A stretch of 64,000 nt of DNA from Lytechinus pictus (lineage: Eukaryota). Under the pieces are notes generated by a model. The model saw only the letters and a list, made by a program, of their open reading frames with translations. It searched no databases and had not been told where the DNA came from. The stretch lies in assembly GCF_037042905.1 (NCBI RefSeq), contig NC_087245.1, forward strand, positions 6,822,001-6,886,000, written 5' to 3'. A program made the position numbers and the translations under genes. Position 1 is the stretch's first letter; each line of letters starts with the position of its first letter. Positions 25,401-57,241 of this stretch are shown here, one piece after another.

Positions 25401-25630
25401 GAAATTAATCTCTAATATTTTCCACTGGATCCCGATATTGTCATCTAAAATAATGTCAATCGATGTTTACTCAGCGTACACAGAAGTAGAAGCGACATGT
25501 AACATGGGAGGACCGGTGCCGTACTACTATACCGTACCGCGGTATACGGTACGCATCGTACGATCTTCACGTTCGATTTCAGTGTGAGCGATTGTGTGTA
25601 CGAATGTGTGTGTGTAAAACGCCGGGTGAT

Positions 25631-25642
25631 GGACACGCCCCC
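25631..25642 (-). promoter_or_regulatory. GC box (Sp/KLF-like GGGGGCGTGTCC) upstream of the candidate gene A first exon
   Basis: ggacacgccccc on the + strand, in a local CpG-rich patch (about 25480-25640) within AT-rich DNA. Confidence 0.35.
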
Positions 25643-29034: not shown

Positions 29035-29811
29035 TTAATAAGGAACAGATAGCACCAAGAAGGTATCACCAATCGCATGTAAAGTCGTTCGTAAAATAAT
29101 TTGTTACCTGATATGAACAGCTTTATGAAACATCCCACTTGTCCTTCGAAGCGTCATGAGCGATATTGAGCCACAAATCTCATGTAGGTATATTTTTAAT
29201 GAGATTAAAATATTGATCCCCATGACATGCAATATTAATGAGTTAGGACACACATTTCCCTACGTTGGAAACGAAGAACAGATGGAAACTTTTGTGAACC
29301 CCACCTTCTCTTTTCCTTTCTCACACCCCTCACACTCATCACCTCTCGCCCCCCCCCCCCCTCTCTCTACCTCACTCGGCGCTTCGATTCTTACTCCATT
29401 TTTTTCTGTTCTTCTTCCTTTCCGTTACAATGGTTGCCCCCCCCCCCCCCCCCTGTCTATCATACACACCTCATATCTCCCTCTCTTCTAACTATCCACA
29501 TGTTTTACTTATCTATTTATACCCTTGTTTTCATTCCTATACCTTTTTTTTACAATATCAAAATAGTCTGAAACTAAAACCATTCACTCGTTCATTCATT
29601 CATATTGAGAGGGCGCTCTTTAGCATTATCTAAACAAGAGAAGAGAGTACTCGTACCTTGTTCATTCTCGAAGAAGTATACATTCTTTTAGACTCTTTTA
29701 CTTGGCCCAGTACCTATACGAGAAACGGTCTATGTTCAAGATGTATAATTATTGTAGGGTCAGTTAATTAAAGGTGTCGGTTGCCAGGGGGGCAAGAACA
29801 ATAATGGACAG

Positions 29812-31320: not shown

Positions 31321-32029
31321 TTATTTAAATTGTAAGCTCCCATGCACTGAGCTCCTAAAACTGACATTTGTTATAGACGCAAATTATAATAATGATAAAT
31401 TCAATATTCATCATTAGCGATCAGTAACAAACCTCGTATAAGGGTTATACCGGGGTATATATACCAGAGGAGGTGGCAAGACGATCGGATCCAAAAGTGG
31501 CGTTGTTTTCCAAATAACGATATTATAGAAATATGACCCAAAACTATCCTTGACATTTTCTTCTGTATATTACTTTTTTCCCGCTTTCCCTTTTTTCTAT
31601 TTTAAATCAAGAGATAGACACCTCAAATATTGCTTCGTGCGCATCATACAGAACCGACCGATGGTATACTCATAATGTATAATTATAAAAAGTACAAGAA
31701 TATTCCTCATTTCATGGATGTGCAATATGATTATTATCTTTTTTAAATCTAAATTTCTAATTATTATCTAAATTTGTAATCGATTTCGATTTTGATATCT
31801 ATTTCTTGATTATATAAAACAAATTTTGTTTCCTTTTATCTCTTTCTAATCATTATTCTTTTCTTCATCTTCTCACTTCAGATTTTTATTCATGCACTTT
31901 ATTTGTTTCTCTTCTCTTTCACTCTTTTTTGCCAATATCGTTTTTTCTTTATGTTCGGTAAACTCCTTATGTACTACCAGTTTATACGCACCTGTACAAA
32001 TTAATAAAATCAATTATTGTAATTAAATC

Positions 32030-32190
32030 AATACCACCATCACCATTATCATCATCACCATCGTCATCATTAGTATTAGTAGGAGTAGTAGTAAGCAGTA
32101 GTAGTATATTATTAGTAGCAGCAGCAGCAGTAGTAGCAGTTGTTGTTGTTGTAGTTGTTGTTGTAGAAGAATCACCATCATTATCATTGT
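32030..32190. repeat. Compound trinucleotide repeat (CAT/TAG/CAG/TTG)
   Basis: Direct reading. Confidence 0.9.
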
Positions 32191-32275
32191 ATGCATGCAT
32201 GGTATGGGTATCTAATGGCTTATAACAATGATAAAAATGGAAAATATGCATTTAACAAAAAAATTGTTTACTTAC

Positions 32276-32469
32276 CTGTGCGAGTTAGGTATTGCTGCAC
32301 TTCTTCTAATAGAAGTATTCCAACAGAACTGAACACATATGAAAGAAAGTATAAATTTATATAATGCTCTAGTGTTTTTCAAATATTCTGAGAACGCAAA
32401 TAGATGGCCCTTTCAAGACGTCACGCCTGTCACCCACGTACAGGCTGTTTGTTTGAGTAGCTATTTATA
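32276..32469 (-). promoter_or_regulatory. TATA box plus candidate non-coding first exon (distal promoter, possibly of gene A)
   Basis: TATAAATA at 32469-32462 (minus), TGACGTC near 32420, consensus donor CAG|GTAAGT at 32275. Confidence 0.4.
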
Positions 32470-32645
32470 CAGAGAAGCAAACTGCATTATTCGCTCCAAG
32501 GATTTCCTTTTTCAGTTCTTTAAGAGAGCATGCTGGTAATGTGTCTCAATAACCTCGTTCAGACGTAGGCATTTTTGGTCGAAGTTAGGTCAGAAGGGTC
32601 GGAGGAAGCCTAGTGAGTCGGGGTATGGTCGGAGGAAAGGTCAGA

Positions 32646-33618
32646 GTAGTGCCCGTTTGGACAGAGGCCGTGGTAAATCACTCCGACCTTCCTCCGACCA
32701 ACTCGTTCCAATCGTAGTAAAATTTTATAACGCATGGATTAAACATATGATCTTATCAAGACCCGGTGTCCACACGACCAGTCACGAAAGAAACTCCGAC
32801 TACACAGGGACCTATCTACGGAGGATTAGTCTATTGTTACTGGGGGCCATTGTCACAGCACCCCCAGTAACAAGAGATAATCCTCCGTGGCCAGGTCCAT
32901 CGACTACATGAAGTCCAACGAAGGGGCCCTCGCTGGGGGGGGGGGGGGGGGTCAGAGTAACTTCCGGAAGTGATTCAGGCTCTCGCCATGGCTATCCTTG
33001 GTCTCCTATTTTCCTCGATTCAGCCCGCGTTCCTTTCCGTCTCTAAATTTCTTCTCTATTATCTTAATTATATCAGTATTATACACGTACAACCGAGCTT
33101 TCTACTTCGAACCGCACTGCGCATGTACTACTCAAAATGTAAACATGGCCGACAGAAGTTTTACGCGAGGTCGAGAGCCTAGATCGGGGTGATAGATATT
33201 CCAAGTGCAGCTACTAGATATATTCCCAGGGCAGTCTGAATACCAGCTAGTCGTGATAGCGAGATAATCCAGACCAAAAAAAAAGGAGTTTCTTGGTCAG
33301 ACTCCTCATGGTCCACGATGCGATTTTGGAACTAGCATTTTGAAACTCCGACTACATGAAGTTTACCACGACCTTCGCAGGGGGCATCGCGGGAGGTCAG
33401 AGTAACTTCTGGAAATGGATTCAGGCTCTCGCAAAATGGCTATTAAAGCCTGCCTTTGGTCTCCTTTTCTTCCGATTCACCCACGTTTCTTTCCGTCACC
33501 AAATTTCTTCTCCATAATAAGGATGATAACTGTCTTAATGTCTTATAACTGTCTTCTAAAACCGGGCCGCAGACCAATCGTAAGTTGTGAGGTGGCTCTT
33601 TCCAGACGGGCACCGTAA
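32646..33618. mobile_element. Probable non-autonomous DNA element with internal duplication
   Basis: Imperfect IR GTGCCCGTTTGGACAGAG / CTCTTTCCAGACGGGCAC; duplicated block about 32900-33060 vs 33350-33530. Confidence 0.45.
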
Positions 33619-33926
33619 GCAGGTAAGGAGATCTAACAAATATCATACCTTGACCCTAAGCTGCATTGTAATTTGCCCATTTTATTGTAATATAACCGTT
33701 TATTGTACGACGTCCATGCGCTAATCATACCCCCAATACTGATTACACGATGCCGCTACGATGCGATAGTGATGCGACTTTACGTTTGTTAAAGAAATAT
33801 AGTTCACATATTCACTAAAAAAAGGTGGATATTACGGTGACCGTTAATACGTACGAACGAAGTCATAAGCACGATACGGCTATATACACTTAGCAGATCG
33901 TACATGATCATCGTACGATGATATAC

Positions 33927-34192
33927 AAGCGTTTTGGCTCAGTGGATAAGTCTCTGGACTTTGAACCACGAGGTCCGGGGTTCAAGTCCCACCACAGCAT
34001 TGGGGTCCTTTGGCAAGGCGTTTATCTATATTTGCCACTCTTCACCCAGGTGTAGTAAATGGGTACCCGGTAGGAAGGAATTCATTGAATGCTCGTGCGC
34101 CCGATCAGGGTAGCCGAGCTAAAGCCGGGGCAATAGTATGCAGCGCTTAGAAAATTTGTACTAAGCGCTATGCGAATGTTGCATAATATTAT
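33927..34192 (+). mobile_element. tRNA-derived SINE with L2-like 3' tail
   Basis: TGGCTCAGTGG A box, GGTTCAAGTCC B box, CCTTTGGCAAGGC...CACCCAGGTGTAGTAAATGGGTACC core, 3' GCGCTTAG...AAGCGCTAT tail. Confidence 0.85.
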
Positions 34193-35214
34193 GATCGCAT
34201 ACCGAATCGGGAAGTAGAAAAAAATGTTTACATGAATTCTACATATACACTCTGCTCTCCCCCCCCCCCCTCCCTCTCTCTCTCTCACTCACATACACAC
34301 ACACTCATTCACCACTCCACCCTTAATTTAATTACCGAGGCAACTTCACACACATCCCCACACGGATCGCCAGTAGTAGACTGTACTGTAAGCTCATCAG
34401 TATTTTGCACGATATTTCAGTATCTTTTCAGTATGTGATTATGGAAATGTAAATTAAATGTTTAAGTTGCGCTTTATCGCATAAAAATGACAAACAGCAA
34501 TAACAACTTATTGCTTTTTGATTTATAAAAAAAAAATTATTGCATTTTCATTGAAAAAATCCAGATGAGTACTCCAAGGTATTGTATGTTTAAAAGTTCA
34601 GGACAAGGTAAAACAGAATGAAGTGTTGCAGCATACATTAATCGATTGCAGTTTATACATTGCGATTCATTATTTACAAACAATAATTTATAAGATAGTA
34701 GTGTATACATGAACACTCATATTGATTATCATAGCGTATCGTTGTTATACCGCACACTTATATTTTGAAAGTTACGATGCGGAACTGTTAACCTGTATTA
34801 TCCAGACTCGCATTAAAGAGTCGGGGGAGTTTCATGAAAGTACAAACACTGACTAAATCGTCACCTCTATTGTTGTGAAATCCTTTATTTGGTTTTGATT
34901 GGCTGGGAAGCACGCGGGGGAAGCATTGGTCTCTGAATGTTGTATGGTAATTGACACTGGTCAGAGCTGAAAAAGCCTCATGAAATGGTATCATGGTGTT
35001 AACCGACTGACGATCAGTCAGTCGGTAAGATAGGAAGAGTCTATTTTAAATTGCTGAGCATAACGAACATAATTATACATGCAAGCCGACTTAAAGTTGA
35101 AAAAAAATATAGTAACTTAATGGAGAGTATTCCTTTTTTATTTCAGTTTGTGAGAGGATTCACTAACGCAGCACTATTTCAAAGAGTCCGTTAATGATGC
35201 AAATGACGCAGTCA

Positions 35215-35534
35215 TCACGGCGTGGGTGTCTTTGAATATGAAGTGGTTTGGCTTGTAAGAAATGCTTGTGAATTCTCCTCGATCCCTTCTTCATGTTCTT
35301 CTATTCCTTCTTCCTCTTCTTGAATCTCATTCCCTTGTGGTACATAAGTCATTAGTGAGAGAATCATGAAGATGAGAGATAAACATCGGCATATGACTGT
35401 CACGATGAAGAATATTTTGCTGAATTCTTGGTTGTCGTAGAGCCAACAGCTTCGAGATCCGTCGCAGTTGCTTTCCCATACTAAACAGACTCTGTCGATG
35501 AGGGCGCCTAGTATAATTGGTCCTGGGACGGTGC
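35215..35534 (-). CDS. Gene B last coding exon
   Basis: TVPGPIILGALIDRVCLVWESNCDGSRSCWLYDN..., acidic tail, stop. Confidence 0.95.
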
Positions 35535-38500
35535 CTATTTCATGTAAAAGAAAATAAAATGCATATTCATAAAATGCATATCAGGTGTCATTATGTTATT
35601 GATGAATAAGGAGTAAAGTCTGCTAATTAAAGTCACATATAATAATAATGCGATTTAGTCTTTGAGAGTCATAACAACGCGAATATTACGCCTAGTTTAA
35701 CCGTGAACATGATGAAACATATTCAATAAGAAGCGTCTCAAGTAGACGATGACGGGAAGACAGAATAAAAAAGGGTCCCAATTTTTGGAGGTGGGAATTA
35801 TCAATTTAATTAAAATTTGAATAAAATCATCCTCCACATTTTTCAAGGTTTCGTTTATACTCATTAAAAGGGGGAGAACGACCTCTAATTTTGGTACAAA
35901 TCTGCCTTAGTAACGCACGAAGATTTTCTTTTTCTTCTTTAGTCACCACCAATCTGCTCCAGCCTTTTACTGGCACTAAATTTACACTATTTCTTTTAAA
36001 AAGAAACATATAGACGAAACCTTTAAGCCTCTTTGTGGAAATATAAAACGTATTAATTATTTCTTTCACTGATAATCCCCACTTCAAAAATCATTTTTTT
36101 AGACCTTTCCTTCGGTCAAGTCTGGTCATATTTTGTTCTCAGGAGTAAACAAGTGTCTAGCCTTCCCTTTCAAAATGTTCGACAACGCTATGGCTATGAA
36201 TTGAATATAACAATACACCGATTGACTCGTATTTTGTGCAGGAGTTGACAAAGGATGTTGACCAGGAAAGGGAAGGGTCAGAAATAAGGGGGAGGGGAGA
36301 GGAACAAATATTGACCCCACCGACGATCAATATAAGTTGTGAAATCTTTCGAATTTGCCTAAAATGGTACCTGAAACTCTTATTTTTTCTGGTTCTTCCT
36401 CATTGTGCTACAGGCTAACCATATACTATACAAAGTCAAAATAAATGGCGTAGCATATTTTGATAAAATATCAAATCTTCCTTATTGGGAGTTGTAAGGG
36501 AATCTCACTCCATCTTAACTGCAATTACCAATTACATTTATGTTCAAATGCATTTTAACAAATCTAGAAAAAAAAAAATCTTGTTCTGTCGCTATGCTAT
36601 TTCACATAAATAATTTCTATCCAGGATTGACGTCACTGAAAATAGATGGCCACACCCCTGGTCATTATTATGCTTTAAACATTCTTACCTAGTAGTCGAT
36701 AAATGAATGATTGTATTCCTAGACCATAAGCTCGTTGAGAATGAGAAACAGATCTGTCAACAAATAAATAGCAATGTTCACAATTATAACACTCGAACGA
36801 ACAATGATTTTCATTTATTTAAAGTTTCTTCAACCTTCACAAAAAATAATTCCGCTTTAGTTTTCCCACCGTTTGGAATTCCATACCTCGTAACACAGGG
36901 GCCGCGGAACCGTGTACAAAAACGTAAAAATGACCATATGATTGTGATTTTTAGCATGGTCAGCCCCCCCACTTTGAAAACCGTTCCGCGGCCCCTGTAA
37001 CATACGATCATACACAAATTTAAATTTATTTAAAAGATGTCTTAAAAATTCCCTCGTGTCCAAGTACTAATTATTTTGCTCCCCCTATTTTACATGCTTT
37101 TGATGTCATCCTACGTTATTATAATGATATAGATATGCCTGTGTAATATAGATTATAATTTCTTTTGAGAACTTCTTCTCACAAGGCCTCTGTGCTTTTC
37201 TTCTCAAGTTCTCTTTCTTTTAATTATGATATTTAATCAAGGCAATGTTTTTTTTATCTATGAAATGATTTACTCTGTATCATTGTATGCATTTCTAATT
37301 TTTTGCATTTTACATGATTTTTAACCTTTTTGAATTTGAATGAATAAAGAATTGATTGATTGAACAAATGATAGAATTATCGAACACAAATTAAGGAATG
37401 AAAAACGCGTAACGAAAATTACTCTTTTAAAGAGGTATTATCAAAGCTGAATCACAATTCTTATTCAACATGCTCAAATTGTATCGGAGCAGAGTTGTGC
37501 ACCAATTGATGACATTGCAATTTCTACTCCATGGGCCCTTCTATCCAGTATCTATGTCTTTTCCTTTCAGACAATGCTTATAAAATTTTGTTAGGAATCA
37601 AATTCTCACTATGAGATGTAATTACACTTAAAATTCCGACTTCTTTACGAAAGATGGAAATATGGAGCATCTATCCTGTCAAGTTCATCCAGTAGGAGCG
37701 AAGAAATTTATTGATGGCCATAGCGTGGAAAAAATTAGAAGTCTCGAGCGAGCGAAGCGAGCGACTAAATTTTGTATCCTTTTTAATGAAATTCTAATTT
37801 TGTGATTCAATGTTCAGAAAATTAGGTCTACACATCTCGCCTTCTTCAATTCCTTGTATTTTTATTTTACCGTTCTCCTTTTTTCTTTGCTTTCCTTTTC
37901 CCCGCTCTCTTTTCTTTTTTCCTTGGTCGTGGGCCCATGCACAAGCCCGCAATCCGTACGTCAATGACTCCACCCTTTGCCCTCCCTATACTCACCTCAT
38001 TGTGGCGAGAATAGACGGTACGAGAGCCAGAAATGTGAAGCCCAATGCAAAGAAAAGTCCAGCCATAAACAAAGGTTTCTTGTCACAAAACTCGTCTTCA
38101 CATAAACCTAAGACTGCTGAACCAGAATACTCTGTGTGGTTGATACTATCTTGGATGCATTTACAATCTTGATATACCTGTTAGAGAGAGGATGGGGCTG
38201 GATGAACATTGTCTTTGACATGTTAGGGGCATGGTGATGAGGTATATAGAGGAATACATCCCGAATTCATTCATTAGATAATTGAAAATGTATAATACAA
38301 ACACCGGCATTCTTAGATATGAAAAGCTACTGATAGATCATTTGATCAGGAACTATTAATATAGCTTAAATTGACCTCTAAAACCTATACTCCATGAATA
38401 TTAACAGATGGATTAACCACAACAACTATACCAACGCAAGAAAGCTCTAAAGTGCTTAGATGTCGAGATGTTTCGTCTAAGTCACGTGATAATCACTTGT

Positions 38501-41500
38501 CGACTTATTCACGTTGGAAGTCGACACAATATGACTTTGTCTTGTCAAGTCAGCTTTTAAATGTTTTAAGAAAGTTACGTTCTTCAGTGGCGCCTTGGAA
38601 ATAGATCATATTTTTATGTCGTCTTACAAGTTGATAAGTCGATATATTAACGGCTATATCTGCAAATCGACTTTATAGGCCTATCACATAAAGTGCCAAT
38701 AGTTTACTTTTCAAATCGGCATGACGACTTCAAATGTCAAAATTGAAATTGTCAAAAATAAGTAAGGGCGCAGTCTCATGTCGACTGTTTTCGACTCGCC
38801 GTACGGTGGCGGTAGGGGAAATGTGACTGCAGCATTAGTCGACACAATTTTATTATGAAGTATAACAACATTTCTGAGCTTCCGTAAACCCCAAACAATG
38901 GAAAAAAAGCAGCTATACGTACTCTGTCACTTTCCACATCATCGGGATATTCATCTTTCGTACAACCAGCAAAGCAGGCTGAGAAGTAGACGACACCATT
39001 GCTACCACATACGGGGTTGTAGGTTGCAGCACAGTGACAGTTGCTATTACATTCAGCAGTGAAATTAGTACTGTTCTCTTCATTTAGAGGAATGGACCTA
39101 GGAGCAACAGAAAGATGTCATGATCAGATGAAAGCGCAGTTTTAGGTCCCCAAATATATACCCCTATTGGTATTTTATTGATTGTAATCTAGGGAACTTC
39201 AATTTTAACAAGCGTTTATAGGGCGGACTTGAAGATTTATGCTTGTTGGGAGAAGCAATACTAATAATCGTGCAAAAAAAAATGTTCATATATTCTCTCA
39301 TATTGGTCAAAATCCTACCTAAAGTCTACATTACAAAGCATCTGGATACATCTGGATTTTTGGATGAAAATATGGTAGAATGTTATACAATATTTGGAAT
39401 TCATATCCTTCCCTAATTGCTGTATGAAGAGTAAAGGAAATCAGAGCGTTTTCTTTCTATGTTCTACTACTTACGTGTTATAGTACTGTACTGTAGCTCC
39501 CGCCATAGGAGGGTCGGGACAATAGGTTAAAAACAAAGACATGCACGCAAGAGAAAACATCAAAGAACCGATGCAAAACTTGACCATTCCCGAGAAAGAA
39601 AGTTTGAAATGTTTGACGAGGAAGGCTCCAATCAGACAACCAACACAACTCGACGGAATAACGATCAGACCTAGGATGGGAAAGATAATGAAAGATTAAA
39701 AATAAGAAAAAAAGTTTTAATTCACCATTGATTAAAGCAAAGAGATTTAGGTATCAAAGTGAGTTTAAAAGGTAGGAGAAAGAGAGAGAGAGAGAGAAAG
39801 GGGGGGGGGGGCAAAGAAAGAAAAGACGACAAATAAAATTGGGTAACACTTGAACAACGTATAACCAATCAAAGACAACAAGCTATGCCCTCAAATTTAC
39901 TTTATTATATATTTTTTTATAGAGTTGGTAATGATCGGAACAAACGTACCTGTCTGAAAGGCAGCATCACTTGAAGACAGTGAGAACTGTGATTCAAAAA
40001 ACTTGGGTCCAAATGCTGCAAGACACGAGATAATAAACCATTCGGTCGCTGCCGAACAATTTAACAACATGAATGGTTTATTGGTAACAAGATTGAGGGT
40101 GGCACGAGGAATATCACGTACAGAGTTGGCCAATCCGGTCTGAGTGATGAATTCTGACCCCTTCTGAGTTTGATGATGGTCGAGCTTACCATCGATATTT
40201 TTGGCGTCTGTTGGATAAACAATTAAGAATATAGATATTTAGTTTCACATAGATAGAAGTGGATTCAGTCAGTATTATCGAGGGATTGTGATTTGCAGGG
40301 ATACATCGGAGCCCCCCCCCCCCCACCCTTCCCCACCAACACCCCGGCCAACAAAAAATGTAGTATTAATACAGTAGATCAAGGAAGCGAATAACAACTT
40401 ACAGAAAATAAATTCACCGTTCATCTACACAATATAATTTCGGCAAAGCGTGGGAAATATGAGAAGTATTCAATAGGTTTACAATATTTGTTTGTTTTGA
40501 AATTGAGATTACAGTAACGAAAATGAAAGAAACAAATCGTTTCATTCAAAATACTTCATCTTTTTAGACAGTGTTAGGCAATGTAGCATATCGAAGACGT
40601 ATTATTAAGCAAGAGGCTCAGTTAGAGCAAGCAACTAACAAAATAACAAAATTATATGAAAATAATGAACCCTCTTAGTAAAGTTTATACAAAAATTTAT
40701 ATATATATTTCCTGAAGTTCCTACAAATTTGTTGTTTCAATGACACTTTTATACACTGAGACCGTCGACATCAAGTAACAGGTAACTCATATTAACGACG
40801 ATCTCCTACGTTAAAAAATACCTTACTTTAAAAAGAGAAAGCTGATTTCCCATATCTCTCTTTTGAAAAAAAGGAAAAGTGTATGTGTAAAAATGTGTTA
40901 CTGCATTTTGGCTGTAATATTATTAAACAAAATATAAGCTCAATAAAACGAAATAGCATTATCCCCTGAATAAAACTTATTACATTCCTCTTATCAGATA
41001 TATCTTTCATGACGTAGAGAAGGGATGCTTATCCCTAAAAGAATAAGTGTATGACGCTGCTAAATCGAAAAATGACATTAAAACGGACATTCTGAAGCTT
41101 TTCGAACATGCACTTATCAGAATGAATTTAGATTCAAGATTCAGTTTCCATTATTGTTACGTTCTTACATTTTGTTCTTTAGTCCGATTTTACTCTGGTA
41201 AATGCATGAATGCATGTCAAAAGATTAATTATGTCTGTTTTTAATCTTATTTCCCGATTATCCCTACTGAAAATGTAAGATTTTCTGGATTTTCTCCTTT
41301 TCATTCTCTCTCTTGTGTTCCTGCCCAGATTGTTTTATTTCCAGCCTTCACAGATGATGCCTAACGGAGCCACATTTTTGCAAGAAGATGAAAAATTAGG
41401 CTTGCGTAAGTGACAACAAGCAAAAATCACAATATAAAACAGGGTTGCATTTTAGGAATAATTTGTGATAGGTTTAAGGAATGATTTTTACCGACCTGGT

Positions 41501-42951
41501 AGATATTTTGGGAATCCAAGTAGTGGTAGAGTGACAATGAGAGCCATACATCCACTTGTGATAAAACCAATCCACCATGCTCCTACCCATAGAACACTGT
41601 CTGGTGTTAAACCCAAACTTTCAATAAAAAAAGGAAAGAAATATGAAATTCTAGTGCTAACATGAATTAATATTTTTGTTTAAAATGAACACAGCCGAAT
41701 GAATAGTCGTGCAAACTAATTTATCATGCTAACACTTCAGAGTTTACTCATAATTAGGCCCAATTAACACGAAAATTTCATATCAAATGTTATCAAAATT
41801 TTAAGATAATTCCTTCTCAGAAGTTTGAGTTCATTATCAGGCATTCAAAAAACATTTCATCGAACAAATGTTGCATAACAGAAGTCATCTACAATTTATT
41901 TTCAGGGGTGATATTTACAATTAAAAAAAAATGTATTTATTTTTCTCTCTGCATAAAATGAAATTATGATAAAATACATGAGGAATGATAAATACATAAC
42001 ATCAAAGACATATACATTACACGAAAAAATCATTGAGAGGGAAGCAGCCAAGAAGGAGAAAATGTCCTTAAAAAGGCCGACCCAATGAAAATTTCATCAT
42101 TGACAAAAATGTTACTCCCTTTCTCATCTTTGGTATTTTAACACTTTTTAGGTTTGGACCCGGGTGAAAATTTTGATATGAATGCTGAAGACTATAAATA
42201 AACCTACTTGGCTCACGTTTTGAGTCTTTTATTATGAAATGCAATGCGTTGTCGTTAAAGGGGCACTCGATTTGACAAACTTTCACTAAGGCTCAATCAA
42301 AAATGATATAAAATGATAACGATTTCTTGTATGATTAGAATGTTAGATAATTACGATTCACATTATTGAATCTGAATCAAAGCTCTAGATTACTATAAAG
42401 ACAGAGGGTAAATGAATGGAATTATTTAAAGGATAAAATACTAATATCAGATCCATGTACATGACGTATCAGTTCAACTGTGGACATGATGGTGACCATG
42501 GTGACGGTGTTCTAAGATGAATCCATCGCAGTCGTGGCCTCGGCCACTGTGATATCGTTCTCATTACAATCCTATTGTGTAGGGGAGGGAAATGGTTGAA
42601 AAGAGCGAAAGACATACCTCTCTGGATCTTCACCCGGGTCGACATAGATACTAAGAAAGTATCCACCAAGGAGATAGCCAAGAGCTGGACCTAGGATTGA
42701 GGTTGCTTGGATTATCCCTTCAGAAGACAATTATATAGAGACGAGAAAGAAAGAGAAGAGGATGTTGATTTAAAAAAACACCACGTAGGCCTATATTGCA
42801 AGTCTACCACTTAACTTGTTTGGTAAATAACTACAAAAACTACAAGAGGCAGCCTACAATCCACCATATTCCATACAAATCCATTTGTTAATTCATTTAC
42901 AGTGTTATTCAATGTATATACATGTATATTTACATATATATATATATGCTC

Positions 42952-42990
<39 letters not shown>

Positions 42991-45416
42991 GAAAGAAATG
43001 GATGAAGAGAACAATGGTAGGCGCGGTTTGTCATTGCTCAAAACCCACCTACACCCGACAAAGGAAATTATAATTGGTATAGTGTCGAAAATCTGTCTAT
43101 CTGACGGTCAATCGGATCGGGGTCGCCCTAGCCACTAACCCGTCTCTCCGTGGTCTAGTGGTTAAGGCACCGGCGTTCAAAGCTGGGGGCTCGGGTTCGA
43201 TTCCCGGCAGAGACATTTTTTCGGCATTGCCAATTTTTCCAAAGGGCAGATAGCTCTGGGGAACCTTGATTTAAGCTACGCCTACCATTGTTCTCTTCAT
43301 CCATTTCTTTTACAAAATATTTAAATAAAAGAGTTGCCAAAGCTGACAAGACATGTACTGTTAGGAAAACTTCTGTAGGCTTACCAAGATAAATGGATGC
43401 CATATGGGGCGACACGCTTTCGTCTATATAAGTAACTCCAAGTGTGTAGATGGGGGCGGCCCCCAGTCCATGAAGACATTGTGCTGCTATAAACACCCAG
43501 TAATAAGAGCTTAGTGTCGTGTTATCATTGTCATCAACATCACAAGGGTTTGTTACGTTTGATGTAGGATCACAAGTATCTGAATATAAAGTCTGGAAAT
43601 AAATTAATGCACTTGATTATTTTAAACATTCATTAATAAAAGACAACATATAGGAATATATTTGATGGAATTTAAGACATTTAACTTCAAATTGTTAATT
43701 ACTACGTCATTAGTAAATAAATAATTGAAAACAAAAGTGTAAAAACCATACTAATTTGGGCCATAATGTTTAGCGGTAACGCAGTTTTATATGCAATCCA
43801 AAATATTGCGAATATTCGTTCAATTGGTAGATAATTGGTAGGATGTAAAGCAATTATTTGTTCAAAAGCCTCCAATGGGTTATTTTTTTGTAGATATAAT
43901 GTATTAATTGCATGTGGAATCTTTTTAATTTTCTCTCTATATTCACAATTGTAAATATTCTATGTGACATTATATTAATCAGTATATCATTTACCGATGG
44001 CTCGTAGAGACCTGTAGTAAACTGTGGAAGGGCGAAGAGAAAAGAACCAGCAGCAAATATAAGGGCGCCGTTGCCGAGCCATAGGGGCTTATTGCCATTC
44101 TCTCCAAAATATGTTACCCCTAAAACAACGACAAGGAGAGCAAGATCGTAACAGGAGGCCAGGAAGCCGCTTTGCACACTGGGAAGACTAAATCGCTGCT
44201 CCAATGTGGTGGTAACAGTATAGACAATACCACTAGTCACGTAACTTTGGGTGAAAGCGAAACCACAGAGCCATACTAGAAATCCTTTGGGATTGTTGCA
44301 ACACTGCAAAGAGAACAAATTTGGGCGCAATATGGGAAGACGAGAGAGCGAGAGAAGAGAGTAAGATAATTAATACAGTGGAAATAGAGAACTTAAAATC
44401 ATGATCATCAGAAATCCTCTCCAGATTGAGAGCTAGAGTTATATCATCAAGATCACCCCCAAATATTTATATATTGAAAAATTCAAATTTTGTTCTCGAC
44501 ACACTGGAAATTATATGGCTCGAACATAAAGTTTATTGACATGGTCTACCAATACAGGTGAACTTACTTTCATAAAATTATATGTATGTTATGAAATGTC
44601 TGAAAAAGATTCAGTAGTAAAATACCCAACAATGTTTAGGCCTATCTTTATACAATGACAAAGTGATTCGAGTTAAATGGCATGGGATGGGGTTATGTGT
44701 ACACCCCAGCAATGTACAAGATACTGTTTGTGGGACATAGAAAGCATCGACTTTTCAACTAAAAAAAAGGTTAGGTTACCAGTTAAAGCTCCCACTTTCC
44801 TGGTTAAAATATGGACCTACTATAGGTCCATGCTTATTAAAGTGACTTTTTGACATCATCTGTATGGTCTATTATGGAGGCATGTAGGGCTGGTAAAGTA
44901 TGGACAGGTTAAAACACAAAGGTGCATTTTTTGGCTTGTTCTTGGGGGTGATCTTTGTTATGTAGTAAATAAGGCACTATCGTGCTGCAGTCACAACGAC
45001 TAAGCCGGAACTGAATCCAAACTGACTGATGATATTCCATTCCAAATAGCTTTGATCGGTCTGGATGGAGTCAGTTTCGCGGTGTGACTAGATCTTTACT
45101 ATTCTGCAGTGTTATTCAGTTTAGCGGTTCACCGTTATTTGCACTATTGGTGTACTAAGATTGTGCAATTAACAACATATATTCATCAACTATGTACCTG
45201 TAACCATGACGGCCGTAAAGAAAAACAACCAAACCGTTGTCGTCCTTCGCTTCGAACAACGTCGTGTATACTCTTCTCTCTCGACGAGCACGTTATCGAC
45301 AATGATTGTGACGATGACGTACGGAGCGCCACAGATTCATCGCTGATCGAATTGTATTCGTTATGTTGGTCAGAGGACAAAAGAGGGGATGAGTCTGTTG
45401 TCATTGCAGTCGACAT
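35215..45416 (-). CDS. SLCO4A1: SLCO/OATP gene B, SLCO4A1-like, complete, about 717 aa. join(45198-45416, 43995-44303, 43385-43592, 42618-42717, 41496-41617, 39950-40207, 39475-39670, 38923-39097, 37996-38177, 36689-36753, 35215-35534)
   Basis: 11 GT-AG exons sum to 2154 nt with an open frame. OATP signature DSVLWVGAWWIGF, Kazal-like CNSNCHC..YNPVCGSNG...ACFAGC, YRLLGTVPGPII, TGA at 35217-35215. An in-frame TGA lies just upstream of the ATG in the same exon. Confidence 0.95.
36689..36753 (-). CDS. Gene B coding exon 10 (65 nt)
   Basis: SVSHSQRAYGLGIQSFIYRLL; same length as the matching gene C exon. Confidence 0.93.
36765..37362 (+). mobile_element. Degraded 3' end of a CR1-group LINE
   Basis: NVHNYNTR...FHL ORF2 C-terminal-like motif, followed by AATAAA and an (ATTG)n tail. 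Confidence 0.5.
36896..36997. mobile_element. 102-bp mini-MITE inserted into a LINE 3' remnant
   Basis: Perfect 15-bp TIR CAGGGGCCGCGGAAC; TAACA on both sides. Confidence 0.7.
37996..38177 (-). CDS. Gene B coding exon 9
   Basis: VYQDCKCI...GLCEDEFCDKKPLFMAG...VPSILATM; ag|gtgagt donor. Confidence 0.93.
38923..39097 (-). CDS. Gene B coding exon 8 (Kazal-like ECL5)
   Basis: NFTAECNSNCHCAATYNPVCGSNGVVYFSACFAGC. Confidence 0.95.
39475..39670 (-). CDS. Gene B coding exon 7 (196 nt)
   Basis: LIVIPSSCVGCLIGAFLVKHFKL...CPDPPMAGATVQY. Confidence 0.93.
39950..40207 (-). CDS. Gene B coding exon 6
   Basis: ...RDIPRATLNLVTNKPFM...FGPKFFESQFSLSSSDAA. Confidence 0.93.
41496..41617 (-). CDS. Gene B coding exon 5 (122 nt, OATP signature)
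   Basis: LGLTPDSVLWVGAWWIGFITSG...LGFPKYLP. Confidence 0.95.
42618..42717 (-). CDS. Gene B coding exon 4 (100 nt)
   Basis: IIQATSILGPALGYLLGGYFLSIYVDP. Confidence 0.93.
42933..42986. repeat. (TA)n microsatellite
   Basis: Direct reading. Confidence 0.95.
42987..43315 (+). mobile_element. Non-autonomous TIR element (37-bp TIRs) carrying a tRNA-like unit, beside (TA)n, in an intron of gene B
   Basis: TIRs 42987-43023 and 43279-43315 match at 36/37 positions. Confidence 0.8.
43142..43215 (+). tRNA. tRNA-like cloverleaf, anticodon TCA, imperfect acceptor stem (probably a repeat-borne pseudo-tRNA)
   Basis: D stem GTCT/AGGC, anticodon stem CCGGC/GCTGG with loop GTTCAAA, T stem TCGGG/CCCGG with loop TTCGATT, T6 run at 43216-43221. 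Confidence 0.55.
43385..43592 (-). CDS. Gene B coding exon 3
   Basis: TLYSDTCDP...AQCLHGLGAAPIYTLGVTYIDESV; g|gtaagc donor. Confidence 0.93.
43995..44303 (-). CDS. Gene B coding exon 2
   Basis: CCNNPKGFLVWL...LPQFTTGLYEPS|gtaaat. Confidence 0.95.
45198..45416 (-). CDS. Gene B coding exon 1 (acceptor at 45451)
   Basis: MSTAMTTDSSPLL...FGCFSLRPSWLQ|gtacat. Confidence 0.88.
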
Positions 45417-46713
45417 TGTTGAAGAGTTCGACAATGGACGATCTAGTCAACCTAAATAATTTCAACGAAATTGCGTGAACTGGTTAATAATTATTGATAA
45501 TCAATAACAATGTGTTAAAATGAGCAAGACAACATGCAAACAAGTAGATTAGACAATACATGAACTTCAAAATCAACCAAATCATTGGTTAAAACCTACC
45601 AAATTGTGCTGCACTCAACCCAGGTAAAGGCACCAGGTAAGAAGAAACTCCTTGTATGGGCAGCGCAGCTAAAGCTGTGATAATAGCAGTGCTTTTTATT
45701 CTCAGGCAAAAAGCGTTGTATAAATCCAGCTACTGTTATTTTCCATTATTATTATTATGCCAAATTTATGCTGTAAAATGAATCACATTTTGTATGTTGT
45801 ATCATGTTAATTATTTGATAATCAGACTCAATTGTCCAAACGGCGTATGGAAAAAGACAAGATGACTTTATATTTCCGCATAATTACCAGCTTATAGACA
45901 AACTGTAAACAGACTTTCATTCTACATGCATTGTCTAGCATATATATAAACCTACCGTATTCAGTTAGCGCCGTAAAGTGCGAGGCATGTGTGATGAAAT
46001 AGGTTTTTCGAAATTTCGGACTTTGGATTATCATATCAATATTGCTACAATTCGATGTCCAAAAATAGCTTAATATATTTAAAGCATGTGAATGTAAACT
46101 TATAAAACTGAGCTTAAGATAGCTAACACATGCCCAGTACTGCACATGCCTATATACTGTATTTACTATTCAACTTTGGGGTTAGCATTACTCTATCCTT
46201 CAACCTATATGTGATTGAATTAGTAAACGAAAACAATTGAAGTCAAACATGAAGCTTTTCAGCTCAATGCTTCTCAAGTTTACTTCATGATTTACCCGTT
46301 ACTCTGATATTCGAATAAATAGATCTTTCTTTGAAAACATCCAGTAATTATAATTGACTGACAATGACCACTAAAGTAACTGACCGTTATCACGATGATT
46401 TTACTCACCCCTTGACCCTCGTGTAGTTTTGTGTGTGTGTCACAATCTTATCTTTTTTCACGTAATAACAGTACTTTAACAACGTACCTGGAATCAAACC
46501 AGATGTGTAAAATCTACATAATTCCTTGTGATAAATGAATAAATGAAATAAAATATAAAAATATCCATTAACGTATATGAACAATTCAAGAAACAAAACT
46601 TTTGTTGTGATTGGCATAGGGACATCTACATAATGAATGGCCTCGTGATCATGGAGTCCGTAGTAGCTGACGGTGATAAAGATTGGAGTGGTACTCGGGT
46701 TGTAACTCGTGAC

Positions 46714-52115: not shown

Positions 52116-52940
52116 GCGAGGGAGCGAAGCGACCGAGCGATTCATTGGCATGATTGATTCTATATTAATGTACACAATTTTATGTATTATATTATTTATG
52201 TTCATATTCTATGTCTGACAATTGTAAGCGCTGTTATGCTTTTGTGTAGAGTGCATATATAAATAACCATTAATATTATTATGATTGGATTCCGTGAAAT
52301 TAAATTTACAGATCTGCTGCATGGGGTAGATTTTGTCAAAATCTGAAATAAAAATATTGAGGTATTAAGAAACTGCACCCTGTCCCTCTTTTTCTCAGAT
52401 GGTTTAATTACAATTCCCGACGAGGGACCATGATTTCAAAGACTTGGCAATACTACATTTTAACAAGTAAAACAACATTTGATCCATCATGAGACAACCA
52501 ATTACTACAATCTTCTACTCAATGAAATAACATTAGTTTAGATTGTGAGAGAAAAGAGGGATGACTGAAATCGAGATCTGATAAACTGTGAGCCTTCAGT
52601 TCGCAGAGAAGGTAAAAACTCAATAAATTCCAGTTTCAACTCGTAGCCGATCGCATTATTTTATATGACGTATGGCCTGCAGTCGACTTCGCAGGTGTTC
52701 GAGAGGATCATTTTCTATGTCTGGACTTTTCTAAAATATATGTCATTTGAAAGACAGTTAATCGCGGATATAAGCTGTTAACCTTGAAAAATGGTGACGA
52801 GCTTTATCTTATCTCCTTATCTTGAAACTTGCCTTCATAAATCAAACTTTATAAAGAGGGATTTTAAAATGTGATTTTACTACTATCCCTTATTTCAGTT
52901 GACATCTATCGGTATCCCTATCTTGAAATCTGTTGACAAC

Positions 52941-53270
52941 ATGGAACACAAGGATACAAAACCCCTGCACGTCAACGACCACGGGAATGAAAACTCACAC
53001 AACAACGATGAAACTGACAATGAAAATGTGTGTATGAACACGATCCATAAGGACGTCGACAAAGACAAGAATTCACCTAACGAGGAAAGTTGTTACGTCA
53101 ACACATCCTTTAAGGACGTTGAACTTGAAAATGATAAGGGTGACGTGGTCGAAGATCATGTGAAAACAAACGGTAAACATCCCGAAATGATAGACGATGT
53201 CGAAGGTGATGATGATGATGATGATAATCCTCAGTGTGGATGGTTTGGCATAAGACCAAGGATCATTCAG
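52941..53270 (+). CDS. Gene C coding exon 1 (acceptor at 52898)
   Basis: MEHKDTKP...[18 protein letters not shown]|gtaatt. Confidence 0.9.
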
Positions 53271-56200
53271 GTAATTGGATATTTCATTGGGTCTCTCTAC
53301 TAATCACATACATTTGCTTAATTTGAAATAATTGTAATAAACTGTCCTGTCAAACTGTTACATCGGTTCAATATTATTAAGTTTTTCATGTAAACTTGTG
53401 ATGATGACAGGCAGATGAAATTAATATGCAATGGCTTTGTTTCTATAGCTAACTTTTAATGAAAATCTTTGATATTGTAAAAATACCAGGTAAAATTACA
53501 AAGGCAGAGTAAATCATCTACTGAACAAACTTGAAATAAAATCGTCGTCATTATTATTTTTTCAGTTAGACCATCATATAATAATAAGCATGACCATCGA
53601 GACGCTTTCAAACCCTAATCTTGCTTCTTTTTTTTTCAAGTGCTGCAACAATTCAAAGGGCTACCTCTTCTTCCTCTGTCTCTACGTCATCGCACAAAGC
53701 ATGACCGTCAACGGGATCGTCTACGTCATCACCACGACACTCGAGCGTCGATTCAGCTTGACCAGTGCACGTAGTGGTTTCATCTCAAGCTGTTATGATT
53801 TCTCTGTTATGATCGTTATTGTATTCGTTACCTATCTTGGTGAGAAAAGTCACAAACCAAGATGGCTTGGGTCAGGAGCGTTCGTCTTTGCCATGGGGTC
53901 ATTGCTCTTTACCTTACCACACTTTGCTACAGACTACTATGAACCTAGAGATGTAAGTTACCGATAGGCTCATGATTTAGTTATGGGGTTAATCCGAGTA
54001 ACTTCGGGAATTCGTTGATTTGTCATTGAATAAAATGGGTATCACTTAATGGATTATATTTTTGGGCGACATATTGACTGGAACCGAAGACCCATCCACC
54101 CCTTCTTTCATCAAATCGTTTCTACCTTTTAATTCAGAATCCACTTGCCAAATCTCTAATTCCGCAATACCAATGTTCTTCTGCGATTCGATTGGTTGGT
54201 TTTATCCCCTGTTTATTTACATGAACTAAAATGTAAACTGCAAATGAAAATGAGTAAACATAATATCAATATTGATAGATACAGAGGGAAATTATTTTCA
54301 GTGTCAATAATAATGAAGATATTTTATTTCCTCATGTGATGAAGAAATATATATATACTTCTTCATCTAGATGCTCGATATTTTATCCTCCTTATCCTCA
54401 GTTTGTTCAAATCTGATCTGATCTCATCTCATTCTCCATCCGTCTATCACTCCCTTCGATTCTTTATTCCTTATTCCTATCTGATTGACAGGCTTCTGAA
54501 ATATCAACATGTGACATCAACGGTACCGATAGTGGAGATTGTGCACCAGGTGAGACTGGTCTGAGCAGCTACTATTGGGTTTTTATAGCAGCCCAAGTAC
54601 TCCATGGACTCGGTGCCTCACCTATCTATACTCTGGGTCTTACCTATATAGATGACAACGTTAAACCTACATTAGTAGCTGTTTATATAGGTAAATATAT
54701 CTGCAAGAAAACAAAATTAGTAAGCAAGGGTGATCACTACCTTTCAGACAATAATAACATTATCTTTTCATTTATCTCTCCGATATATTAGATATTTAGT
54801 GTCGTTCTCACATCGTAACGCCAATACTAAAATAGACAGACAAATGAATACATAGATACATAAATAAATAAATATAAAACTCCTCAAAATAGTTTGGAAA
54901 TCTGACATTGATCGAAAATCCCTCCTCGATTTTAGTAAATGTCAGAGTGCAATTGATATCAATGAATAGAGCATTCAATTTTCTTTAAAAATGATACCCT
55001 ACATGATATGATTATGGTTCACATGGATGTGCAGTGCCTTGAAATGTGGGGCGAGGTCAAAATTCAAAAGTTGCAAAATGACACAATATTGAAAGTCACT
55101 GTTCTTATTTCCGTGGCGATGAGTGAGTTTCTCAGCGGTTTCTTTTTTTTTGATCGATAATTTCACATCGGTTTTAGTAAATGTCAATATTTAATTAATA
55201 TCAATGAACAGATCATTTAATTTTCTTTAAAATGATACCCTACATGATGTGATTATGGTTCACATGGAGGTGCAGTGCCTTGAAATGTGGGGCAAGGTCA
55301 ACATTCAAAAGTTGCAAAAATTACACAATATTGAATGTCACTGTTCTTTTTTCAGTGGTGATCAGTGAGTTTCTCAGCGGTTTCTTTTAATTATTCTCAT
55401 GCACCTTAACATCAACATTAACATGAAATCAAACACACCTCTGCACAAGCAAACACATAACAAACAAACACACATGCATGGGTATTTCAAACCACGACTC
55501 AAACCATGTTATCTCACAGAACCATCACCACAGAAGCAGGGGCTTGATTTGAATGGATTTTCATCTGTATTGACACAGACAAAAGAATCATGTTCTGTAT
55601 TGACCCTTCATGACTATTTCTGCTCGTTTTGCCGCTTTTCAGTTCAGACCTCATCCCACACTTTTGAATCCTGCTCTTTTTTTGATGGCATGATCATAAC
55701 AAGCATGGTATCATTTTAAAGGAAACTAAATGATCTTTTGAATGATATCAAATATGCATTGTGTAAATTTGGGAGTTGGGAGAAATTAATGGCCAAAATC
55801 AGATTTCCAAACTTTTTTTGCTCGTTTTGCAGCTTTTCAATTCAGACCTCATCCAACACATTTGAATCCTACTCTTTTTGTGATGGCATGATTATAACAA
55901 GCATGGTATCATTTTAAAGAAAATTAAATGATATTTTGAATGTTGTCAAATATGCATTGTGTAAAATTGGGAGTTGGGAGAGATTAATGGCCAAACTCAG
56001 ATTTCCAAATTTTTTTTGAGGGGTTAGATGAATAATTAGATTAATGTAATATAAATGGATAATTAAAATGAATGAGTCAATGAATGAATGAATCAATAAA
56101 TCAATCAACCAATCAGTCAATATATCAATCAAATCAATCAATCAATCAATGAAATTAGAAGGCATTTCACTTTTCCTTTTTTTAGATATTGCAATTGAAA

Positions 56201-57203
56201 CTGGAGCGTTTTTCAAACTTAGCATCACTGTATAATTCCAACTATCTTTCAATTATTGGCAGGTATATTCCAGGCTATGTCGACCTTGGGTCCTGCTATT
56301 GGATACATACTCGGTGGACTCTTTCTTACCTTTTATACAGACGTCAATGTAGATCCAGAGGAGTAAGTTTAATATATATATATATATATATATGGTAGAT
56401 CTATCTTGATAACTCAATATACACAAACATAATGATCAAGAAACACGTTGTTCTAGTCTACATTCTCCTTACAGATCCATGTAAGATTTAGCGTCGTTTA
56501 ATCCCAAAGCCAGATCTCGGACCCTCCACTGGATAGGATCTGTGCAGTAACCTGAGAAGAAGAAGAATATATTTATTGACAAGCGAAGGGCGAAGCGACC
56601 TAGTTAATTGCGATATCATATAGGATATTTTGAAATCAGCATAATGGTGCATACCTTTTAGTAATAACTGTGGAAATTTGCCAAGAAAGGTTTTTATTTT
56701 TTATTTTTTAAGGAGCCACCCCTCCCTCTGTGAACGTGTGTGACAGTTGATCTTAAAAAGATGTTGTCTGTTTTGTTTTGATTGTATCACCAATTTTGAT
56801 TTTCAAATGGCGTATCTTTCTTGTGTAACTTAAAGATTTATTACTAATACTGTCTGTACCGATAAGATTACGTTTATATATTCCATTTATAGCTTAGGAT
56901 TAACTCCTGAGAGTCCGTTATGGATTGGTGGTTGGTGGATGGGGTTCTTTGTGGATGCATCTATTGCCCTCCTTGTCATCATACCTCTATTAGGATTCCC
57001 AAAAGCTTTACCAGGTAAATATTTAAGTTTTTATCATCTAACCCCTTGTAACTATATATCAATATTTTTAAAACGTCACTCAGTTACTCAGATTCGAATG
57101 CAAAATTGATATACATGTAGTAGAATGAGTATGCGACTTGAGCGTTTTAATCAGGTATAATTATGGTGTCACACAAAAACTAATGCATGGATTCATAATC
57201 ATA

Positions 57204-57241
<38 letters not shown>

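Follow-up and report, generated by a model that had tools for sequence, protein, structure and literature searches.

A tRNA-bearing noncoding repeat in Lytechinus pictus with insertion marks resembling those of Penelope-like elements

An intron of an OATP/SLCO gene in Lytechinus pictus holds a tRNA-like gene with the anticodon TCA, set between short inverted repeats. This raises the question of what kind of element carries the gene and whether the gene could serve in reading UGA. The initial annotation of the window (the whole 64,000-nucleotide stretch analyzed here) proposed a DNA transposon with terminal inverted repeats (TIRs) that disperses a self-contained Pol III cassette. The analysis below points instead, with a probability that we put at roughly 0.7, to an abundant noncoding repeat of ∼406 bases that is copied into (TA)n by the reverse transcriptase (RT) and endonuclease of a Penelope-like (Naiad-type) element. 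The repeat is most likely of a known kind, a nonautonomous Penelope-type element, and its novelty would be the tRNA cargo.

The locus and its tRNA-like module

The features of the locus are collected in Table 1. The inverted repeats described in the initial annotation are identical at 36 of 37 positions, as it had stated, and at 38 of 40 when widened to 42984 and 43318 (self-BLAST E value of about 1e−12). A self-BLAST of the 64-kb window found no second copy of the element. The host intron is supported by an X2 contig spliced from 43384 to 42718 and by the loose end of that contig. The element lies within this intron of a minus-strand gene, so the tRNA-like gene is antisense to its host; this orientation and the neighboring (TA)n tract had both been described correctly. 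The tract is likely to have been the integration target of the element.

Table 1. Features of the element and its surroundings (positions in the window)
Feature	Position	Strand	Basis or remark
Host intron, OATP/SLCO gene B	42718..43384	-	667 bp, GT-AG; Pfam PF03137
(TA)n microsatellite	42915..42987	.	TRF; perfect run 42957-42986
Left arm ("TIR")	42987..43023	-	Read as a 5'-truncated inverted copy of 43279-43315(-43318), head-to-head with main piece
Main piece	43023..43345	+	323 of about 406 unit bases; same sense as abundant RNA
Decayed antisense copy of tRNA module and trailer	43063..43141	-	Fixed in unit
tRNA-like cloverleaf	43142..43215	+	ARAGORN, Rfam, sequence
A box	43151-43161	+	Sequence
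Anticodon TCA	43177-43179	+	Loop 43175-43181
B box	43194-43204	+	Sequence
T6 run	43216..43221	+	Pol III terminator-like signal, crossed by abundant long RNA
Right arm ("TIR")	43279..43315	+	3' end region of repeat unit, not terminus
One-sided extension	43316..43345	+	30 bp, part of family sequence (Penelope-type "tail")

The tRNA-like gene is the sole ARAGORN call in the 64 kb, labeled SeC from its anticodon, and the sole gathering-level Rfam match, for which generic tRNA is the best model (RF00005, 45.2 bits). The cloverleaf, its boxes, its anticodon and the T6 run are all present as first described, with stems paired at 4/4 (D, two G-U), 5/5 (anticodon) and 5/5 (T) positions, and so are the G at position 32 and the short variable region of 4 nucleotides. 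tRNA-Sec has a long variable arm, 9/4 stems, and a 6-bp D stem; the module shares its UCA anticodon but has 7/5 stems, a 4-bp D stem, A73, and internal A and B boxes. The acceptor mismatches noted earlier belong to the window copy, which carries a 2-nucleotide insertion at 43148-43149 and a T at 43191, and not to the family: the insertion is missing from 23,907 of 27,126 RNA reads, so that the acceptor stem of the majority form pairs at 7/7 Watson-Crick positions. The T stem of the majority form is likewise Watson-Crick at 5/5. When the window-copy tRNA was folded alone, it was no more stable than its shuffles (z of −1.45, 16 of 200), partly due to the insertion.

The initial annotation had proposed to check whether the anticodon is kept across copies, and in most of them it is. 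Base 43179 is changed in only 20 of 36,401 RNA reads (library X23) and in 1,450 of 739,821 of the summed contig depth in DNA run X10, and most copies of the repeat combine a perfect acceptor stem with TCA. One contig set, X2, has TCT at 198.7 of a depth of 401.7, which indicates that TCA is not invariant. The module travels with its T6 run and TCA, which rules out the chance insertion of a SINE head into a miniature element (MITE) that the initial annotation had named as a challenge to its reading. The TCA anticodon was probably inherited by descent from a captured tRNA or SINE head. The module itself has probably been kept as a promoter or enhancer rather than as a decoding tRNA, and decoding is unlikely.

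Extent of the repeat family and its RNA

The extent, neighbors, and joints of the family were determined from the reads and contigs of four out of 24 listed sequencing runs, aligned on the window (among them X10 and X13, DNA contigs; X23, RNA); the DNA runs are from organism B, which bears a species label other than that of the window and is 97% identical to it at the flank. Depth forms a plateau over 43023-43345 in three runs. X10 repeat depth falls from 93,520 in the bin 43326-43350 to 50.2 in the next, and past 43350 depth is at the single-copy level of 50. RNA depth is 15 + 6 over the left arm and about 23,000 from 43023 onward. One common other sequence lies 5' of 43023 (20,623 RNA reads, 22 X10 contigs, and 20 X13 contigs), and beyond 43345 a total of 11,888 RNA reads and 51 + 35 contigs run into one common other sequence. 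The inverted arms are therefore not the termini of the element, as had been proposed, since the repeat reaches 43345 and a different sequence is usual on its 5' side. The edge bins indicate a roughly 1,400- to 1,900-fold excess, which is a rough figure for copy number; contig depths added together, which reach 1.1 million versus 50, were not used for this purpose because overlapping contigs inflate the sum.

A joint from 43345 to 43023, end to start, is present in 472 RNA reads (21 starts, side 32) and implies a spacer of about 85 to 87 bases and a unit of about 406. It is listed in RNA only and is absent from the X10 and X13 contig listings; tandem DNA and circular RNA both fit it. By our own estimate, some 3,000 such reads would be expected were all units joined, more than the 472 observed. 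One 454-nucleotide X13 contig has 192 upstream letters outside the alignment, which indicates that some copies are not tandem. Two spacer motifs had no match in the 64-kb window at ≤3 mismatches.

Other contigs show how copies end. AT-rich, (TA)n-like loose ends follow 43310 in 28 X10 and 18 X13 contigs (agreement of 0.55). Among the 15 joints listed, out of 90, five connect the left arm to differing right-hand positions and four are opposite-strand joints, with sides of 39 to 112 letters and one contig per run each. One single-copy X10 contig aligns solely outward from 43345 and resembles an empty site. Left ends at 42980-42989 were compared with right ends at 43313-43321 and 43343-43359 for target duplications. 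None of ≥4 bases was found at 43343-43359, and the sole 4- to 5-mers are AT-rich and lie at 43316-43317, within family sequence.

The repeat is abundantly transcribed. In X23, the one library (stranded) on which the RNA evidence is based, 83,729 of 8,710,588 RNA records (0.96%) fall on this stretch, and those in the tRNA sense outnumber those of the opposite strand by about 1,100:1. The abundant RNA begins upstream of the tRNA: the module is preceded by no fewer than 119 + 60 bases that belong to the family and are present in RNA. Its depth climbs from about 25,000 to 44,000 over 43145-43225 and is about 43,000 on either side of the T6 run, with no piled ends. The sense RNA crosses T6 and so probably does not arise from the tRNA promoter alone. 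The dispersed Pol III cassette of the initial annotation is thus retained in part: the vehicle is mobile and T6 travels along, but the abundant RNA is not tRNA sized and reads through the terminator-like signal. Among the 40 variant rows listed, of 71, there is none at the T-loop A (43200). Together with the lack of piled ends, this gives no sign of mature modified tRNA in the abundant RNA, although a 151-nucleotide RNA-seq library does not sample 72-nucleotide RNAs and a small mature pool would escape it.

The computed fold of the unit RNA (z of −4.84) was matched by none of 100 shuffles, with 62.8 expected pairs between the antisense copy and the tRNA. The antisense copy, which the initial annotation had not described, matches the 3' half of the tRNA and its trailer in inverted orientation (43063-43132 versus 43182-43240) with a score of 42, which was reached in 1 of 5,000 shuffles. 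The long RNA is accordingly predicted to be a rod in which the decayed antisense copy masks the cloverleaf.

A probable Penelope-type insertion weighed against other vehicles

The left arm, 37 to 40 bp long, has the form of a Penelope-type inverted, 5'-truncated head whose 3' end joins (TA)n; inversion joints elsewhere in the family fall at other positions. The tail at 43316-43345 is on the right side only and measures 27 bp if the arm runs to 43318. Naiad insertions are described as having an inverted 5'-truncated 5' copy, a 30- to 40-bp tail at one end, (TA)n targets, and no clear target site duplication (TSD) (Craig et al. 2021, PMC8557442), and Penelope elements as having head-to-head inverted pLTRs, a 31-bp tail, and mobilization in trans (PMC3846280). 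The inverted head, the one-sided 30-bp tail, the (TA)n target, and the lack of a target duplication at this locus together resemble the published Naiad insertions. We propose that a few tandem or partial-tandem loci would make multimeric or circular sense RNA, which would fold to the rod with its anticodon hairpin predicted to stay out. A Penelope-like enzyme would nick (TA)n and prime cDNA at the AT-rich 3' end of the unit. At the opposite end of the target, synthesis of a second, longer cDNA would begin from a site 30 bases beyond the first, and head-to-head joining of these truncated cDNAs would follow. The product would carry a short inverted copy that looks like a left TIR and a 30-bp tail on one side only, and it would show no evident target duplication. 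As for an autonomous partner, the only RT among the scanned ORFs of the window is a fragment at 10035-10976.

A MITE, Ginger-like, or foldback DNA transposon with TIRs of 36 to 37 bp and a captured tRNA gene, close to the vehicle first proposed, is suggested by the near-perfect inverted repeat with TGT...ACA at the arm ends (42988/43314) and by the several contigs that link the left arm to right-hand parts, joints that also fit internal deletions of a TIR element. We consider it very unlikely, since the family extends 30 bp beyond the right arm and has another usual 5' neighbor, the inversion points vary, end-to-start joints occur, and no target duplication was found. The family runs past the TGT...ACA ends, which also removes a Ginger or LTR interpretation of them. 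Another rival is a tRNA-derived SINE, or a SINE-derived tandem repeat, mobilized by a LINE and inverted at its 5' end by twin priming. Against it, the same 37 bases stand on both arms here, an outcome that L1-type twin priming of a single monomer does not produce. The intact A and B boxes, a putative LINE-type RT fragment within the window, the climb in depth over 43145-43225, which could reflect an additional RNA with its start close to the tRNA, and the existence of SINE-like Pol III tandem repeats in Schistosoma (PMC6765202) would all suit such an origin. It is nevertheless unlikely, because the tRNA lies midunit with T6 directly after it, rather than at the 5' end of element or transcript as in a tRNA-derived SINE, and the main RNA begins upstream of it with no piled 5' ends.

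Helenus-like TRIMs offer a further comparison, as these tRNA-bearing LTRs with a short internal part have a tRNA-like piece and a T-rich stretch, form tandem arrays with internal parts down to 85 bp (the spacer here is ∼85 to 87), and produce false suppressor calls. A solo LTR or tandem array of this type is highly improbable at this locus: no TGG-type primer binding site (PBS) follows 43314, the sole CA end, in the window or in the loose ends; copies end at about 43320 into (TA)n or at 43345, off any TG/CA borders; no 4-bp duplication is seen; and LTR elements do not have inverted truncated heads. With any of these vehicles, Pol III might transcribe the module into a processed and charged tRNA that reads UGA as a weak opal suppressor, as its perfect majority cloverleaf, intact boxes, T6 terminator, and near-constant TCA in X23 reads would allow. 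Against this stand G32, the variable arm that is not long, the damaged window copy, the abundant RNA without signs of mature tRNA, the predicted masking of the cloverleaf in the long RNA, and TCT in about half of the X2 depth, and we regard such a suppressor as extremely unlikely.

Relation to known elements

As a probable Penelope-type insertion, the repeat is closest to Naiad and other endonuclease-positive Penelope-like elements and to nonautonomous Chlamys families such as MRC1, with which it shares the inverted head, 30-bp tail, (TA)n target, lack of a visible TSD, and, over the window bases at 42987-43360, lack of a canonical hammerhead (PMC8557442). The nonautonomous Chlamys families form head-to-tail copies, an arrangement that the repeat may share. 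It differs in having no ORF and in its cargo, a full tRNA cloverleaf with Pol III boxes that is accompanied by a decayed antisense version of itself. No tRNA-bearing family is named in the available text of PMC8557442 and PMC3846280, and our literature search found neither a tRNA-bearing Penelope-type noncoding element nor a paper on this repeat family in Lytechinus.

Animal non-LTR retrozymes (Cervera and de la Pena 2020, PMC7229834; 10.64898/2026.07.22.740005) resemble the repeat in their units of the 170- to 400-nucleotide class, very abundant and highly self-paired RNA, and proposed dependence on Penelope-like elements (PMC7229834), and perhaps also in their tandem arrangement. The repeat differs in its tRNA module, and a search of both strands over the 374 bases at 42987-43360 gave no type I hammerhead core, with about 25 spacer bases unseen. 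A 6/7 near-core was noted by eye in the spacer letters, lacking a closing helix, and the 26 Rfam matches include no ribozyme. Tentatively, the repeat might be a ribozyme-free retrozyme, a parasite of a Naiad-type Penelope element with a circular or multimeric rod RNA of ∼406 nucleotides that makes up ∼1% of nonribosomal RNA. Where retrozymes use a hammerhead, such an element would use the captured tRNA gene, both for its promoter and as a docking point for the enzymes with which the host processes and ligates tRNAs; the hairpin of the UCA anticodon would stay exposed on the rod. Naiad ORFs with UGA codons are known from clams and spiders (PMC8557442), and the boldest and least probable extension is that certain loci produce, in addition, a charged tRNA with the UCA anticodon, which would aid the reading of UGA, as in such ORFs.

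Two other systems share part of this architecture. Schistosoma Sm-alpha and Sj-alpha are SINE-like tandem noncoding retroelements with an internal Pol III-type promoter; they have an active hammerhead and Pol III reads into the next unit (PMC6765202), whereas in the present repeat the tRNA is directly followed by T6 and the searches for a ribozyme were negative. Helenus and TRIMp3 are, likewise, short nonautonomous retroelements with an internal tRNA-like piece, which inflates tRNA and suppressor-tRNA predictions (Kojima 2024, PMC10886601). The repeat lacks their PBS/PPT, fixed TG...CA ends, and 4-bp TSD, the available text describes no echinoderm family, and no term in the accessible part of its supplement matched the element.

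Three scans of viral contigs gave no match to the element. Of two metagenome scans, one gave none and the other a single match (L003), which agrees with the element only at 26 of 27 bases across the B box and T run and in which ARAGORN found no tRNA. Two matches in prokaryote genomes, of a 20-mer only, were taken as chance. A tRNA-bearing noncoding parasite with Penelope-type insertion marks would extend the SINE idea to Penelope-like elements. It would also provide a small, abundant natural template for the unsolved origin of Penelope inverted heads and tails, and its RNA is plentiful enough to purify. For annotation the repeat is a warning, as such copies may be mistaken both for MITEs and for selenocysteine or suppressor tRNA genes.

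Features of the locus

The initial annotation had reported inverted repeats, a cloverleaf with paired D, anticodon, and T stems, a TCA anticodon, G at position 32, an adjoining T run (T6, 43216-43221), and a site beside (TA)n in a minus-strand intron. All were confirmed, and the intron belongs to an OATP/SLCO gene; its splice is present in one X2 contig (organism A). The tRNA-like gene is the sole ARAGORN call and the sole Rfam gathering match in the whole window. Its D, anticodon, and T stems are fully paired, its variable region has 4 bases, and T6 comes directly after the gene. Compared with the known features of tRNA-Sec the gene is built differently, and that identity was rejected. The decayed inverted copy within the element has a local score of 42, equalled by 1 of 5,000 shuffles. 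No second copy of the element was found within the window.

Features of the element and the surrounding window
Feature	Position	Strand	Remarks
Inverted repeats (left/right arm)	42987-43023 / 43279-43315	opposite	identity 36/37
tRNA-like gene	43142-43215	+	ARAGORN, Rfam gathering match
Anticodon loop	43175-43181	+	TCA at 43177-43179, G at position 32
(TA)n tract	42915-42987		adjoins left arm
Host intron, 667 bp, GT-AG	43384-42718	-	OATP/SLCO gene; encloses entire element
Decayed inverted copy of tRNA 3' half and trailer	43063-43132	-	overlooked in initial annotation
OATP/SLCO exons	near 2395-8575 and 35215-45446	-	two genes
OATP/SLCO exons	52875-62054	+	one gene
Reverse transcriptase fragment, 314 aa, PF00078	10035-10976	-	LINE-like by appearance
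Second tRNA-headed SINE-like piece	~5130-5365	-	A-box and B-box motifs
~500-bp repeat with inverted ends, MITE-like	4269-4767, 21908-22423, 28499-29038		3 copies, 73-78% alike
Adjacent two-copy tandem repeats, 242- and 198-bp units	54908-55388, 55613-56018		match each other in reverse orientation

The OATP/SLCO cluster at 2395-62054 comprises at least three genes, and 6 of 7 pieces scanned match PF03137. The exon beside the element (43414-43505) has paralogous exons in the other two SLCO genes, at 2410-2540 and 54562-54692. The SINE-like piece at ~5130-5365 has 14 B-box bases in common with the element, is otherwise unrelated, and gave no ARAGORN call.

The family and its RNA

Four of 24 listed sequencing runs were aligned to 42976-43700 at 80% likeness: X23, raw stranded rRNA-depleted RNA from organism A (~6% of the run sampled); X2, contigs from organism A, one matching exon 43384-43593 with 0 differences; and X10 and X13, DNA contigs from organism B, with 8 differences over 259 letters of a flank contig. 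The species label of the DNA runs differs from that of the RNA runs. Alignments were obtained for 6,792 of 31,725,824 X10 and 4,259 of 7,337,854 X13 contigs, and summed X10 depth ranged from 70,000 to 1.1 million across the element versus 50.2 on the flank. Family reads are mostly 90-99% alike.

The stem flaws noted in the initial annotation are real in the window copy but are not family traits. Two bases at 43148 are absent from 23,907 of 27,126 RNA reads, which places G43150 opposite C43208 and gives a majority acceptor stem of 7/7, and C at 43191 (37,876 of 38,520 reads) makes a full Watson-Crick T stem. No variants at 43175, 43177, 43178, or 43200 were among the best 40 of 71 variant rows, the weakest of which reaches ~19% in its best run. 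TCA is kept almost throughout in X23 and X10 (third base altered in 20 of 36,401 reads and 1,450 of 739,821 depth), but not in X2 (altered in 198.7 of 401.7 depth). TCA and G32 are thus traits of the family, and common descent within a young family accounts for them.

In the single X23 library, 83,729 of 8,710,588 records (0.96%) align to 42976-43700. Over 43026-43325, summed bin depths of first mates are 377,134 minus versus 330 plus (~1,100:1), which in most stranded libraries denotes plus-strand, tRNA-sense RNA. On the minus-strand exon, 9-12 reads of an SLCO paralogue have the opposite orientation, in agreement with this sense, and 2 exact reads disagree; X23 reads on the exon beside the element derive mostly from a paralogue. 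RNA cover is unbroken over 43023-43345, beginning upstream of the tRNA and reading through T6, and no piled read ends were listed along the family RNA in X23. Intermediate alleles at 43040 (51%), 43081 (29%), and 43093 (24%) suggest that several units serve as sources, and the window's own copy contributes at most 46 of 22,671 reads, judged at 43037. Depth climbs from ~25,000 to 44,000 across 43145-43225, which may reflect library bias or another RNA whose start lies close to the tRNA; the library cannot sample 72-nt RNAs.

For the window copy without the spacer, the part of the repeat unit outside 43023-43345, the predicted fold is -107.5 kcal/mol (z -4.84, 0 of 100 shuffles). In this fold the decayed antisense copy is predicted to pair with the tRNA (62.8 expected pairs), leaving the acceptor, D, and T helices at probability 0.0 and the anticodon hairpin at 1.0.

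The 43040 A-to-G variant is found in 51% of X23 RNA reads versus 3-6% of organism B DNA depth, a contrast that could lie between the species or come from selection among the units that are transcribed. The spacer holds a near-hammerhead core, and the G makes a GAAA downstream of it; by eye, the helix stays unclosed.

Ends, joints, and mode of insertion

The arms, which had been taken as terminal inverted repeats of a DNA transposon, are not the ends of the family. X10 depth is still 93,520 in bin 43326-43350 and 50.2 beyond, so family sequence extends 30 bp beyond the right arm, to 43345. One common sequence follows 43345 (11,888 RNA reads, agreement 0.95; 51 + 35 contigs in X10 + X13), and another, which is not the left arm, precedes 43023 (20,623 RNA reads, 0.96; 22 + 20 contigs). 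RNA depth over 42976-43000 is 15 + 6. The two ends are joined, 43345 to 43023, in 472 RNA reads with 21 starts and a shorter side of 32 letters, and arithmetic from 151-nt reads gives a spacer of ~85-87 and a unit of ~406 bases after majority indels. Two points speak against general tandem joining: this joint is rarer than the ~3,000 reads we estimate under full joining, and among the best 15 of 90 joints it is given for RNA and not for DNA contigs.

Other exits vary. Behind 43310, 28 + 18 contigs pass into AT-rich, (TA)n-like sequence. Among the best 15 of 90 joints, at least five link the left arm (43013-43023) to differing right-hand sites (43234-43299) and at least four join opposite strands (sides of 39-112 letters, one contig per run each). 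One 454-nt X13 contig carries 192 unaligned upstream letters, which speaks against all copies being tandem. In a single-copy X10 contig the first 33 letters are unaligned and alignment runs solely outward from 43345, as it would at an empty site or a different one. A target duplication was sought at the element's ends and not found. Given the extension past the right arm, the different 5' neighbor, the joints, and the lack of target duplication, the preferred reading of the left arm is a short reversed second copy, its 3' end in (TA)n, lying head-to-head with the longer copy.

In the description of Craig et al. (PMC8557442), Naiads insert as partial tandems that are 5'-truncated; a further truncated copy often lies inverted at the 5' end, producing inverted repeats around the unit. 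They have a 30-40-bp tail at one end and (TA)n targets, with no discernible TSD or canonical hammerhead, and non-autonomous Chlamys families are reported. Head-to-head junctions, a 31-bp tail, and mobilization in trans are described in PMC3846280. The locus at 42987-43345 shows the inverted truncated copy, the head-to-head junction, the one-sided tail, and the (TA)n target, with no TSD found, and may share the tandem arrangement. We therefore favor, with a probability of roughly 0.7, non-autonomous Penelope-like (Naiad-type) copying of the ~406-base repeat into (TA)n by a putative partner enzyme. In this model (TA)n would prime synthesis on the AT-rich end of the unit, the other end of the target would prime it again 30 bases further along, and the two truncated cDNAs, copied from a template that would be multimeric or circular, would be joined head-to-head.

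The family is a real feature with a vehicle other than a DNA transposon, most likely a variant of Penelope-type non-autonomous elements. Animal non-LTR retrozymes resemble it in abundant self-paired RNA (170-400 nt in retrozymes) and in the tandem units and Penelope dependence proposed here. Unlike in retrozymes, the defining hammerhead was not found in the family sequence searched, which covers all but ~25 spacer bases; a ribozyme in those bases is possible. No tRNA-bearing Penelope-dependent element was found in print, in a search that lay outside most subscription papers, Repbase, and Dfam.

The family shares a tRNA-type promoter with Schistosoma Pol III tandem SINEs and with Helenus, but differs from them in its ends and in the position of that promoter. 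A tRNA SINE mobilized by a LINE is unlikely, and a Helenus-like TRIM is very improbable. A TIR transposon is scarcely more probable than that; the left-to-right joints would also fit internal deletions of such an element, and the end map speaks against it. That the gene yields a working suppressor tRNA, with its TCA anticodon and a cloverleaf lost from the predicted fold, is the faintest of prospects. Immediately beyond the junction, at 43345-43357, the host flank has a 7-base motif in common with the family continuation, offset by one base, which could represent priming microhomology.
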